IMG/VR virus record: IMGVR_UViG_2617270979_000005
Coordinates: 1 to 17,402 of that record
DNA length: 17,402 nt
From: a virus
Lineage: Duplodnaviria; Heunggongvirae; Uroviricota; Caudoviricetes
Direction: 5' to 3' (one strand)
Part shown: in pieces, positions 5,406 through 8,541 of the stretch
How positions within the stretch are numbered: position 1 is the first letter of the stretch
Layout of the letters: each line of letters begins with the position of its first letter
Notes under the pieces: model-generated
The model's input: the letters and a program-made list of their open reading frames with translations, nothing else
Told to the model about the DNA's origin: nothing
Databases searched by the model: none
Translations under genes and position numbers: made by a program

Positions 5406-5434
5406 AGGAAAAAACAAAACCCGCGAAGCGGGTT
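5406..5434 (-). terminator. Rho-independent terminator ending the cargo operon (minus strand)
   Basis: Hairpin AACCCGC-GAA-GCGGGTT (5418-5434) followed on the minus strand by TTGTTTTTT (5409-5417). Confidence 0.7.
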
Positions 5435-5506
5435 AGTAAAAATGTACTGAAGTCAATGACGTGCCATCACAGTTAAAATATGACAGACTCTATTTACGTA
5501 GAGATG

Positions 5507-6385
5507 TCAGACTGCAAGATCCAAGGGAAGATCAGAAATATCCTTTAATCTTTTACCATTAACCATCACGGAAAGCATGTCAGCTGCATCGCTGAGCCCC
5601 AGTATTTCAACTGCTGATATAAGTTCATAAAGCGCAAAATGATACACGCAATCTATATCACCAGTACCAAGAGCAATAGACGCCAGACGACTTGGAGTAG
5701 GCTCAGCAGTAACAACCATTACATGAGGGAGATTTCCCTTACGGTTGCGAATAAGATTTAATGCCTCAGAACGAGCATTCTGGGCCCGGTCGCTTCTTAT
5801 TGTCCATTTGCAGGAAATACTTGCGTGTAATATTGGTTTCCCACCATTCGAACTCCTGAGAGCTGACATGCGGGTAACAGAATCATCCACCAGTAATTCA
5901 GGACTGTTGATAACTTGATCACATTCAGGTTCTCTTTCAACAATAATATCTGGTGAAATCGTATAATCACTCCCCAGTGCAGCAGCTAGCTGAGGATTAC
6001 TTTTTGCAGCACTATCCAATGCTATAAGATGGGCATATTGTTCATATTTAGCTATCTCTAATCTGTTTCTACCAGAAACCTGATGTACATTCCATTTTCC
6101 AGGGCGTAAGTGGCTGAGTTTAAAAAAGGTTTTTTCTATAAACTCTGCGCAGATACTCTCAAACTGATTACCAGATGTTTGCCCTGCAACACGTTCACCA
6201 ATCGTTTCAGCCTGCAAGAAGCGAGCAATTTCTCTTGCTATAGCTTTACTGTTTTTGTTACTGCTATCTGCGTTACTAACAACTCCGGCAGTATTAATTG
6301 TGAGCGTATTCAGTAACAATTGGGCATGAAACTCCTTTCTGGCTTCAGCAAAACCAACTATGCTGTCAACCAAATCTCCATTCAT
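5507..6385 (-). CDS. Candidate Type II restriction endonuclease (PD…SxK…E arrangement) partnered with the upstream C5-methyltransferase
   Basis: 292-aa ORF from ATG 6385 (AAGGA RBS 9 nt upstream), 13 nt after the methyltransferase stop; contains 'SPDIIVERE', then 'ISCKW' about 50 residues later, then E 14 residues on, reminiscent of the Cfr10I/NgoMIV/Bse634I catalytic layout (from memory). AT-rich. The nuclease call is an inference. Confidence 0.5.
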   Translation of the reverse strand: MNGDLVDSIVGFAEARKEFHAQLLLNTLTINTAGVVSNADSSNKNSKAIAREIARFLQAETIGERVAGQTSGNQFESICAEFIEKTFFKLSHLRPGKWNVHQVSGRNRLEIAKYEQYAHLIALDSAAKSNPQLAAALGSDYTISPDIIVEREPECDQVINSPELLVDDSVTRMSALRSSNGGKPILHASISCKWTIRSDRAQNARSEALNLIRNRKGNLPHVMVVTAEPTPSRLASIALGTGDIDCVYHFALYELISAVEILGLSDAADMLSVMVNGKRLKDISDLPLDLAV

Positions 6386-6398
6386 TTCTGGATTTCCT

Positions 6399-7523
6399 TC
6401 AGGCTGCTTGACTATTCTTACTGATGTTATTCTTATACCGTCCCTGCAAAACTCCATACACATATTGTGCGATTTTTGCCGCAAATAGCGGTGGAACAGC
6501 ATTCCCGATCTGCTTTGCAATCTCAGTTTTTGAACCGGTAAAAATGAAATTATCAGGAAAAGACATTAATCTCGCTGCCTCACGATGAGTTATTGGCCGA
6601 TCCTCTTCCGGATGTAAATATCGCCCTTTCTCCGGTTTGAAAAACTCAGTACGAATCGTTACTGAAGGTCTGTCCCACCACAGACGTCCAAACAAATCGG
6701 TCCCTCCAGATTTCTTTTTTAGCCAGCACGCCGGGGTTATATCAGGTCTTTTTTTCTGTAAATCGAAACGGTTACCTCCTGGTGGAACCGCTTTATATCG
6801 CTCCAAAGAAACAGGTGTGGGATTACGCCCAAAATGTAAGTTCAGCGGAGGAAGTTCATTACGAATATCAGTTCCAACAGGAGCAGGTAAGTCACCAATT
6901 GCATCACGCGTACAGACCCATTCAGGCAAAGCGACATCCTTATCAGGGGAACGATGCGTTGGTGCTGGCGGGAACGCCGGAATACTATGCACATCGAAGA
7001 GTTCTCGTTTGATACCGATTGCTATCGTTCGTTTTCTTGTCTGAGGTACTCCATAGTCAGCAGTATTCAACACCATTGGATTAAGCAGAATAAAGCCCAT
7101 GGATTTCGCTCTAAACGTAATGTCCGCAAACTCATCGCTTATCAGCAATCCGGGGACATTTTCCATGACGAACATACAAGCCCTTGAACGCTCAATGACA
7201 TCCATATAAGGCTCCCACAATGCTCTTCGGTGATCACCATAACGATTCTTATTTAATAAACTGAATCCCTGACACGGGGGGCCACCTATGACCACATCAG
7301 CCTCAGGAACAGTATTGCTGGATGCCCACTCCTCAATATTTGCCTGAACTCCATGCAAACCAAAATTGGCATTGTAGGTATTTATAGCTGCAGCATTATT
7401 ATCAATAGCAAGGATACTTTCAAAGTAGTCAGACATCTCTCCATGAAGAAAACCATAAGATAATCCACCTGCCCCACAAAAGAGGTCTATCACTCTGAAT
7501 TTATTTAATTCTTTCATCCGCAT
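6399..7523 (-). CDS. DNA cytosine-5 methyltransferase
   Basis: 374-aa ORF, ATG at 7523 with GAGG RBS; canonical m5C motifs: I 'DLFCGAGG', IV 'GGPPCQGFS', VI 'ENV', VIII 'QTRKR', X 'GNAV'. Confidence 0.9.
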   Translation of the reverse strand: MRMKELNKFRVIDLFCGAGGLSYGFLHGEMSDYFESILAIDNNAAAINTYNANFGLHGVQANIEEWASSNTVPEADVVIGGPPCQGFSLLNKNRYGDHRRALWEPYMDVIERSRACMFVMENVPGLLISDEFADITFRAKSMGFILLNPMVLNTADYGVPQTRKRTIAIGIKRELFDVHSIPAFPPAPTHRSPDKDVALPEWVCTRDAIGDLPAPVGTDIRNELPPLNLHFGRNPTPVSLERYKAVPPGGNRFDLQKKRPDITPACWLKKKSGGTDLFGRLWWDRPSVTIRTEFFKPEKGRYLHPEEDRPITHREAARLMSFPDNFIFTGSKTEIAKQIGNAVPPLFAAKIAQYVYGVLQGRYKNNISKNSQAA

Positions 7524-7606
7524 CCATATGCCTCAGATTAATGTTGAGCGTCTTACAGGACGCGTAATGTTAACTGGGGCTTTCTCTATCTGCCTTTTGG
7601 TGTTCA

Positions 7607-7631
7607 TGCCTGAGGCAGACAGCCTCAGGCA
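7607..7631. other. Perfect 9-bp inverted repeat (TGCCTGAGG-N7-CCTCAGGCA) between the QueH-like gene and the m5C methyltransferase
   Basis: Seen directly; no flanking T-tract on either strand, so not a classical terminator; candidate operator or RNA hairpin. Confidence 0.4.
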
Positions 7632-7701
7632 CCCGCAGCAATTCTACTTAACTCACGTCACCTCGCCAATATGAAATCAATCAGAAAGGTGATCCATAAA
7701 A

Positions 7702-8388
7702 TCACTCCTTCTCTTCTTTTCCGTAGTGGAGTTGGCCAATTTTGATAAGAGGGCGTCCCTGAGATTTGCGGTGTAGATTGGTATCGCGCAGAGAATACAC
7801 ACAGCCACAATATTCCTGCTGATAGAATTTTTCGCGCTTGCTGATTTCAATCATACGGGACGAGCCGCCCTGCTTGCGCCAGTTATAATCCCAGTACACC
7901 ATACCCGGATAATGCGCAACAGCTCGCCGCCCACACTCGTTAACCTGCTGCATATTTTTCCAGCGTGAAATGCCCAGTGAACTGCTGATCACACTGAAAC
8001 CATTTTCAGCAGCGTACAACGCTGTCCGCTCAAAACGCATGTCAAAACACATGGTACAACGGATCCCCCTCTCAGGCTCCCATTCCATTCCTTTGGCACG
8101 TTCAAACCAGTTGTCGGTGTCGTAATCAGCATCGATAAACGGCACGCCGTGTTGTTCAGCAAAGCGAATATTTTCATCCTTACGAATTAAATACTCTTTC
8201 TGAGGATGAATGTTCGGGTTGTAGAAAAAGATGGTGTAGTCGATTCCCGAGGCCTGAAGCGCCTCCATCACTTCACCGGAACATGGAGCACAGCAAGAGT
8301 GCAGTAGTAGTTTGTTTGCCCCGTTTGGGAGTTCCAATTTAGGCCGTTTGAAATCAGCAATAGTCATAAATATTTTTATTGGGGTCAT
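7702..8388 (-). CDS. queH: QueH-like protein (DUF208, epoxyqueuosine reductase family)
   Basis: 228-aa ORF (ATG 8388; alternative ATG 8367; neither has a strong SD); family-defining motifs '[11 protein letters not shown]', '[10 protein letters not shown]' and 'YCGCVYS'. Family call from memory of DUF208. Confidence 0.75.
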
Positions 8389-8541
8389 GAAAATAGCACA
8401 GAGTGTAGCATCAGAGCAGGGCTATCGGGAATATATGTCTAAATCTGGTAATATCTGGTTTTGACGCAAAGCGGACAACCACGCTGGCTCTACCCTGCGC
8501 CATGAAAATGTCAATTCACATCTGAACTAATGCTCTTTAAT

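Follow-up and report, generated by a model that had tools for sequence, protein, structure and literature searches.

The stretch analysed here, referred to below as the window, comprises 17,402 nucleotides (nt) of a viral record (IMG/VR record IMGVR_UViG_2617270979_000005, positions 1 to 17,402) and represents, by its gene order on the minus strand, the early-right region in a lambdoid prophage of the Qin/Rac type. A slot in this region carries three cargo genes, which encode a type II restriction endonuclease (R), a 5-methylcytosine (m5C) DNA methyltransferase (M), and the epoxyqueuosine reductase QueH. These genes do not constitute one island but two independently acquired modules: a restriction–modification (R-M) operon, which has replaced the mok/hok toxin open reading frame (ORF) inside a hok/sok locus, and a QueH module. 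The fuller account, that of a two-module cargo slot holding a hok-framed R-M operon and a captured QueH gene and spread by recombination, we regard as likely.

The replacement emerges from pairwise comparison with an ST131 genome (locus L002), in which the same slot reads DUF977, QueH, hokD, a small ORF, and DUF968. The window is collinear with this locus up to position 5435 and again from 7530, and the cassette in between contains M and R and, to either side of them, no more than a few bases. It substitutes for 287 bp of the intact locus (positions 3632-3918 of L002), i.e. for the mok/hok ORF, including the hokD coding sequence, and for the 3' fold-back (fbi) element, GCACCCGC, which in ST131 stands ahead of the terminator and in the window is missing. 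Among ORFs of at least 50 amino acids (aa), none between 5436 and 7529 is Hok-like, and hok and mok ORFs are lacking from the window. What has been kept is the promoter, the terminator, and about 105 nt of the leader. The promoter scan makes an identical call in the intact ST131 locus. The break lies directly after GAGGC, which in intact loci precedes the annotated mok start, and the former mok Shine-Dalgarno (SD) sequence GAGG (7534-7531) now lies 7 nt upstream of one possible M start codon (ATG 7523) and 13 nt upstream of the other (ATG 7517). The Rfam model RF01794 (hok/sok) scores 61 bits in the window, versus 120.5 bits in the intact locus, with only model positions 1-88 truly aligned. 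The terminator (minus strand, hairpin AACCCGCTTCGCGGGTT followed by TTGTTTTTTC) directly follows hokD in ST131 and is also kept in two other R-M carriers, contig L123 and strain A34. A preliminary description of the window, made from its letters alone, had read this hairpin as the downstream bound of an island inserted between backbone genes. The hairpin is real, but it is common to intact hok loci and travels with the cassette rather than marking an island insertion, and the R-M cassette, instead of having been inserted between backbone genes, took the place of a toxin ORF within a locus whose signals remain.

Of the Sok antisense RNA (plus strand), the hairpin and the U-rich tail persist, and the 5' tail and promoter region have been replaced by antisense M coding sequence (junction 7529/7530). 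No plus-strand promoter was found at this remnant by a simple scan that also misses the Sok promoter in the intact locus; judged from the junction, Sok is probably vestigial, its promoter and 5' tail having been lost. The hok leader lies directly upstream of M in 26 of the 27 near-identical copies on IMG/VR viral contigs. The exception, L123 (IMGVR_UViG_2757320581_000006, 2560-5000), has a 97% identical cassette with the same terminator and a different upstream sequence, and this cassette, in a lambdoid backbone of another kind, still has a DUF977-like gene on one side and RusA/Q on the other. The L123 backbone also encodes a further, unrelated m5C methyltransferase (7136-8176). Literature searches returned no description of the locus, of a QueH of E. 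coli prophages, or of an R-M system taking the place of hok. What appears to be undescribed, and of modest novelty, is that an R-M operon has been substituted precisely for the hok toxin ORF within the hok signals; the genes themselves are of ordinary, known kinds and are already annotated by NCBI.

On profile and structure matches, R and the adjacent M form an NgoMIV-family type II R-M pair. R matches Pfam PF09015 (NgoMIV_restric) at 6.1e-127 over profile positions 1-275 of 275 and the NgoMIV structure (PDB 1FIU) at 9.6e-119 over residues 12-292. The block SISCKWTIRSDRAQNARSE is identical in both proteins; we take it, following the NgoMIV structure literature, to contain the catalytic lysine (S-x-K) and the distal glutamate as well as the R-S-D-R element for CCGG recognition. 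Also conserved are D34 (SNAD), D140 (ISPDIIV, aligned with ITPDIIV), and R227 (TPSR), and for residues aligned with NgoMIV the roles in outer-base contacts are presumed from the same literature. GCCGGC is accordingly given here as the likely, predicted target. PADLOC classifies R as REase_II (8e-126) and its neighbour as MTase_II. M itself matches PF00145 (4e-54) and TIGR00675 (5e-45), and its translation contains a complete set of m5C motifs (I FCGAGG, IV GGPPCQ, VI ENV, VIII QTRKR, and X GNAVPP). It ends 13 nt before the start of R on the same strand. No NCBIfam family matched R (or QueH), nor did any PHROGs family match R. Thus, where the preliminary description had an m5C methyltransferase beside a ‘nuclease candidate’, the methyltransferase keeps its identity, the nuclease becomes specifically an NgoMIV-family endonuclease, and their pairing, which had been missed, is added. 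Avoidance of GCCGGC was considered as a sign of an active R-M system (the window has 0 such sites versus approximately 4 expected) and rejected, R-M-free relatives being just as depleted.

The independence of the two modules is apparent from their distribution among 5,426 complete E. coli genomes: the flanks of the slot occur in 4,772, the QueH segment in 1,032, and the R-M cassette in 60 (59 of them at at least 99% identity). QueH is present without R-M in roughly 970 genomes, and QueH next to an intact hok gene without R-M is exemplified by the ST131 locus, by EC31, and by the isolated phage HannyBb (L096). Conversely, R-M is found without QueH in strain A34, which is 97% identical across 5416-7646 and has beta-family and sce7726 genes upstream; this copy is hok-framed, as are those without QueH on the IMG/VR contigs L122, L139, and L140. 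An internal border can also be placed. Relative to ST131, near-identity (approximately 99.9%) is confined to 7641-8582, with ten mismatches in the 111-nt hok leader, so that a recombination border falls at the hok promoter (around 7640).

These data bear directly on the possibility that QueH, M, and R were gained together as one 3-kb foreign segment, as the preliminary description had proposed for a single three-gene island. The three genes are indeed contiguous in 57 of the 60 R-M genomes, and the block is near-identical in the four lineages examined. Against a joint gain stand the roughly 970 genomes and phage HannyBb with QueH alone; the R-M copies without QueH in A34, L122, L123, L139, and L140; the internal breakpoint; the difference in GC content at third codon positions (GC3) between QueH (0.52) and R-M (0.30-0.37); the hok remnants between and around the genes; and the QueH-only loci, which bear no R-M scars and in ST131 include an intact hokD. 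We consider a single event very unlikely.

The same block recurs in unlike backbones. Identical protein accessions for R, M, and QueH are found in O157:H7 strain 9000, in O111:H11, in O103:H2, and in the human isolate FDAARGOS_1286—four lineages whose backbones comprise two Q types and two replication modules—and the block is 99.3-100% identical to the window in all four (from approximately 5328 to approximately 8582), except for the hok leader/promoter segment of L100 (98.3%). The three loci from E. coli that produce Shiga toxin (STEC; strain 9000, O111:H11, and O103:H2) have 3-4 mismatches in the 3.25-kb block and flanks that are 72% (DUF977), 83% (small ORF), and 90% (DUF968) identical. FDAARGOS_1286 has 4 mismatches in the block and a backbone close to that of the window (DUF977 99.5%, small ORF 95.3%). 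Comparison with these lineages places the empirical borders of the cargo at about 5328 and 8582, and the previously suggested borders, 5406 and 8541, prove to lie within approximately 80 bp and 40 bp of them. A transposon- or integrase-mediated island was rejected: flanking repeats are short and at chance level, and 5328-8582 contains no recombinase gene. The simplest reading of the comparisons is that the block moves by homologous recombination among mosaic prophages rather than by transposition. In strain JKHS016 (L001, NZ_CP147059.1), an IS5-family insertion sequence is located exactly at the right border of the cargo (window 8542-8545), with CTAG duplicated; this genome, the closest one to the window, is otherwise 99.8-100% identical to it from 3659 onward and differs to the left of about 3659.

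The cargo genes are three intact, co-oriented minus-strand ORFs (R 5507-6385; M 6399-7517 or 6399-7523; QueH 7702-8367 or 7702-8388), situated, as the preliminary description had it, between a nin-type hypothetical gene and a block of small-ORF, DUF968, RusA, and Q genes. On the minus strand, they follow genes for a Cro-like helix-turn-helix (HTH) protein, a YdaT-family protein, a DnaT-like and a P-like replication protein, DUF1627 (8953-9741), and DUF977 (8542-8937; ‘Ren-like exclusion protein’ in PHROGs), and precede a 92-aa small ORF (phrog_1212, 5058-5336), DUF968 (4010-5056), RusA, and Q. Because of this order—Ren-like DUF977, cargo, DUF968-RusA-Q—the cargo position corresponds to the nin region of lambda. 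The AT-richness formerly attributed to the whole cargo holds for the segment 5406-8541 (GC 0.439, versus 0.529 in 2805-5405 and 0.532 in 8542-11724), but only its R-M part is compositionally foreign. The cassette has a GC of 0.426 and a GC3 of 0.30 (R) and 0.365 (M), whereas QueH (GC 0.473, GC3 0.515) falls within the GC3 range of the backbone (0.45-0.62). Low GC is not peculiar to the cargo region either, since AT-richness of the same degree is found on the immunity/dicB side of the window (about 11800-15200).

QueH matches PF02677 at 1.1e-65 (profile positions 1-174 of 175) and the Thermotoga maritima structure PDB 7LC5 at 7.8e-22, with the cysteines of CC (CCAP), CxxC, and CGC aligned; in PHROGs it belongs to phrog_3217 (1.7e-138), a family of unknown function. 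In every occurrence of this QueH allele, the R-M-free ST131 locus among them, the 153-bp spacer between DUF977 and QueH is 99.3-100% identical. The closest relatives outside E. coli (79-86% identical) are those of Erwinia, Gibbsiella, Photorhabdus, Providencia, Proteus, and others. Since the three sampled contexts among these relatives are ordinary chromosomal neighbourhoods (e.g. purL-queH-glrK and tmcA-queH), the prophage gene looks like a captured housekeeping enzyme from Enterobacterales rather than a phage-specific derivative. The epoxyqueuosine reductase of E. coli itself, QueG, needs cobalamin, and the most economical function of the prophage enzyme would be to reach queuosine without B12. 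DNA modification by phages is known to draw on queuosine-pathway genes, and QueH here adjoins an R-M system and belongs to a PHROG without assigned function; it could on these grounds serve phage DNA chemistry (7-deazaguanine modification or R-M-linked counter-defence) instead of tRNA. We judge this extremely unlikely: the window contains no DpdA/TGT-like or preQ0-synthesis genes, the protein is close to housekeeping chromosomal QueH and has all conserved cysteines, and QueH is mostly found without R-M.

A donor of the R-M cassette was sought with R among one genome per species (185,579 species), among plasmids, and in a collection of deposited phages. None emerged: no species representative exceeded 78% identity, plasmid matches reached at most 79%, and the phage collection gave a single match, at 56%. 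The nearest endonucleases outside E. coli (73-78% identical) are scattered in Pseudomonas, Halomonas, Burkholderiales, and others, and next to these distant relatives an M gene likewise precedes R, but it is only 25-28% identical to that of the window. The window-type M, in turn, is common in Enterobacterales. It accompanies an NgoMIV-family R in a lambdoid prophage of Klebsiella michiganensis, where it again lies immediately upstream of DUF968 and Q (M 80%, R 80%), and in the Cronobacter dublinensis chromosome (M 78%, R 84%), and neither of these two copies has a hok leader; the hok frame is peculiar to the lineage of E. coli. The M lineage (75-77%) also occurs with an HNH nuclease of approximately 330 aa on P2-like prophage contigs of Yersinia kristensenii and Salmonella Cerro (L093-L095). 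On IMG/VR contigs, R at 80% identity or more is always accompanied by the window-type M, and R at 78% or less by an M.NgoMIV-type enzyme wherever the partner was confidently detected; four contigs at 46-78% (L137, L154-L156) gave no confident assignment, and L157 is only a 354-base fragment. NgoMIV-family nucleases (L008-L087, L101-L158) thus belong to two cassette types with unrelated m5C partners, an M.NgoMIV-type of approximately 315 aa and an enterobacterial type of 372 aa, a pattern that indicates an old swap of the methyltransferase beside a conserved nuclease. A recent re-assortment of M and R, to which the strongly divergent M partners of the distant relatives had pointed, was rejected; because the same pair recurs at approximately 80% identity in Klebsiella, in Cronobacter, and on IMG/VR contigs, the pairing is old within an enterobacterial clade.

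For the working of the two modules, we propose the following. Module 1 (approximately 5328-7640) is a hok/sok locus in which an M-then-R operon has taken the place of the mok/hok ORF and the fold-back element. The constitutive hok promoter would transcribe M and then R in the lysogen, translation of M would begin at or just after the former mok start site, and the transcript would stop at the hok terminator. M could then protect GCCGGC sites of host and prophage and R could cut incoming unmethylated DNA, which would amount to defence against superinfection; like any type II R-M system, the pair may also penalise loss of the element. Module 2 (approximately 7641-8582) would supply a QueH of the Enterobacterales housekeeping type and so give the lysogen or the phage a cobalamin-independent conversion of epoxyqueuosine to queuosine in tRNA, alongside the host QueG. 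Exchange of both modules between mosaic prophages probably proceeds by homologous recombination, with the conserved flanks and the hok sequences as its sites.

Several observations weigh against parts of this proposal. Given its distance from the M.NgoMIV-type partners of related nucleases (25-28% identity), the methyltransferase does not qualify as an ortholog of M.NgoMIV, and its lineage is elsewhere paired with HNH nucleases. R-M-free relatives are as poor in GCCGGC as the window (2 sites in 53 kb). In the RNAfold structure, a helix takes in part of the SD region, and that M draws on the hok promoter and the mok SD is suggested only by geometry. The L123 copy lacks the hok leader, so the event may have been either a capture into hok or, for this copy, a later loss of the leader. 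For QueH, the promoter scan found no minus-strand promoter in the 153-bp spacer upstream.

The location of the R-M genes also allows a different emphasis, namely that the pair is mainly a selfish addiction module which succeeded hok as post-segregational killer, with phage defence incidental. The genes are positioned exactly where a killer toxin gene was and within the expression signals of that toxin; post-segregational killing by type II R-M systems is established; and the prophage also bears a paaA2-parE-type toxin–antitoxin (TA) module. Chromosomal hok loci, on the other hand, are often inactive, so that a replacement need not keep the function, and the sequence does not separate addiction from defence, two roles that are not exclusive. 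We hold this emphasis to be possible, though rather doubtful. That the R-M genes are a silent or decaying remnant without current function we think quite improbable. In its favour, prophage cargo is in many cases cryptic, a dedicated control (C) protein is lacking, and the leader fold may occlude the SD. Both ORFs are, nonetheless, annotated intact in all 60 carrier genomes (59 at at least 99% identity), across O157, O111, O103, and commensal-type backgrounds, the catalytic and recognition residues are conserved, and the two genes are kept together; an active R without M would be lethal. A further and unlikely possibility is that the hok/sok chassis has been repurposed as the control circuit of this C-protein-less system. 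Translation of M and R, beginning at the former mok start, would then be restrained or postponed by the structured hok leader, possibly together with a residual Sok-like antisense RNA. Were this the case, the problem of establishment on entry into a new host (methylation must come before cutting) would be solved, and the regulatory hardware of one addiction module would have been reused to run a different addiction/defence module.

Beyond the hok-framed operon and QueH, the slot has accommodated many other genes, and its occurrence data support its recognition as a recurrent cargo hotspot of the nin-equivalent region. The preliminary description had suggested as much, and the prevalence of the flanks compared with that of R-M and QueH, together with more than 10 other cargo types, bears it out. 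Related prophages do not uniformly carry the three genes at the GC content of the backbone, and the arrangement that had been given for Qin of E. coli K-12 was correct (ydfU, small ORF, rem, hokD, relE, relB). Alternative contents include hokD; rem; relBE; DUF551; an alpha/beta hydrolase; HNH with ParDE; DUF5677; DUF7167; KilA-N; beta-family with sce7726; a 1,488-nt hypothetical gene; a 393-nt hypothetical gene next to hokD; and, in strain SX23, QueH with a hypothetical and a KwaB-like gene. At least two sub-slots can be distinguished, one from DUF977 to the hok promoter and one from hok to the small ORF, with the hok locus acting as the common anchor. In SX23 (L005, NZ_CP142789.1, 3788-5979), the KwaB-like and the hypothetical gene are located between QueH and hokD, and part of the hok promoter/leader sequence is found on both sides of the pair, which suggests that this insertion or recombination used the hok leader.

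Table 1. Coordinates of the cargo block and of its component features in the window.
Feature	Position	Strand	Basis or remark
Whole cargo block (hok-framed R-M unit and QueH module)	5328..8582		Mismatch map versus other lineages
Rho-independent terminator	5408..5434	-	Hairpin 5434-5418, T-run to 5408; terminator scan
R-M cassette, 2,094 bp	5436..7529	-	Breaks with ST131 L002 at 5435/5436 and 7529/7530
NgoMIV-family type II restriction endonuclease, 292 aa, predicted target GCCGGC	5507..6385	-	PF09015, PDB 1FIU, PADLOC
m5C DNA methyltransferase	6399..7523	-	372 aa from ATG 7517 (NCBI start), 374 aa from ATG 7523
Truncated hok mRNA leader	7530..7634	-	5' end, two stem-loops, mok SD GAGG (7534-7531)
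Sok antisense RNA remnant	7530..7590	+	Hairpin and U-rich tail kept; dG -28.9 kcal/mol, z = -5.07
hok promoter	7641..7669	-	TTGGCG, 17-nt spacer, TAGAAT; promoter scan, identical call in intact ST131 hok locus
QueH module extent	~7641..8582		Near-identity range versus ST131
Epoxyqueuosine reductase QueH	7702..8388	-	221 aa from ATG 8367 (NCBI), 228 aa from ATG 8388
DUF977-QueH intergenic region, 153 bp	8389..8541		Travels with QueH

Elsewhere in the window, several features of the prophage were noted. An IS1 element occupies the left end (1-768; InsA 423-698, InsB 1-504, DDE_Tnp_IS1 6e-78). Just downstream of Q, on the minus strand, is a second, apparently orphan methyltransferase gene of the N6/N4 type (1181-2230; Pfam 2e-44, PADLOC MTase_II 4e-167), which is also present in related prophages. 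Two prophage tRNA genes are likewise found downstream of Q on the minus strand (879-955 and 1056-1131), a tRNA-Arg(tct) and a tRNA with the anticodon CAT, the latter Met according to ARAGORN; related loci annotate tRNA-Ile among several prophage tRNAs at this place. The plus strand encodes a paaR2-paaA2-parE2-like TA module (12091-13090), consisting of an HTH regulator, a PaaA2 stability determinant (1e-21), and a ParE toxin (7e-18), and hence a further addiction module of the same prophage. The small RNA DicF (14598-14649, plus strand; Rfam, 76.7 bits), directly followed by a sub-threshold match to STnc100, confirms the Qin-type dicB region.

For annotation, the practical consequence of these results is that a vague ‘nuclease candidate’ becomes a specific R-M system and an apparent island becomes two modules with different histories. 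A GCCGGC-type R-M system, as predicted, is present on a recombining prophage block in approximately 1% of complete E. coli genomes, including STEC of serotypes O157:H7, O111, and O103, and could affect the phage susceptibility, transformability, and m5C methylomes of carrier strains. A B12-independent prophage QueH in approximately 19% of genomes, including ST131, could alter the tRNA queuosine status of an otherwise cobalamin-dependent species. The exchange of the hok ORF for an R-M operon is a tidy example of module swapping at sub-gene resolution, and further defence genes of lambdoid prophages can usefully be sought in the slot that separates the Ren-like gene from phrog_1212/DUF968.

The components of the cargo can each be set beside a known system. 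The reference for the R-M pair is the NgoMIV system of Neisseria gonorrhoeae (PDB 1FIU, G^CCGGC), with which it shares an R that is approximately 66% identical over its full length, identical catalytic (S-x-K...E) and R-S-D-R blocks, and the gene order M then R on one strand; it differs in that its 372-aa M is of another m5C lineage and in that the pair is prophage-borne, low in GC3, and embedded in hok/sok. QueH resembles the T. maritima enzyme (DUF208; 7LC5) in its full-length PF02677 domain and its CC, CxxC, and CGC cysteines, but is prophage-encoded, and the species that carries it has the B12-dependent QueG as its own enzyme. The frame of the R-M genes corresponds to hok/sok loci (parB of plasmid R1; hokD/hokW with mok) in promoter, first 105 or so nt of leader, mok SD, Sok hairpin/terminator, and downstream terminator, with 90-94% identity to intact loci at the same position. 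It lacks the hok/mok ORF and the fold-back, and with the Sok 5' tail and promoter region replaced it is a remnant frame and not a TA system.

At the level of the slot, the nearest parallels are the morons of lambdoid phages, such as the ydfU-rem-hokD-relEB region of K-12 Qin. Shared with these are the position between replication/Ren-like and DUF968/RusA/Q genes and the character of the cargo, which is bounded by promoter and terminator, independently transcribed, deviant in composition, and alternating between phages. In the window, however, the cargo is an R-M operon plus QueH, and its signals are unevenly distributed: the R-M unit (GC3 0.30-0.37) has none of its own and borrows the promoter and terminator of the displaced hok, and for QueH (GC3 0.52) no promoter was found. 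The defence hotspots of P2 and P4 (Rousset et al. 2022, PMC9122126) are comparable in offering a fixed slot between conserved phage genes to alternative anti-phage systems. They are linked to the present slot by the M lineage of the window, which occurs with an HNH nuclease on P2-like prophages of Yersinia and Salmonella, and by the KwaB-like gene in the lambdoid slot of SX23. The slot described here differs from them in being lambdoid, in its position, and in also accepting cargo unrelated to defence (QueH, rem, and TA modules).

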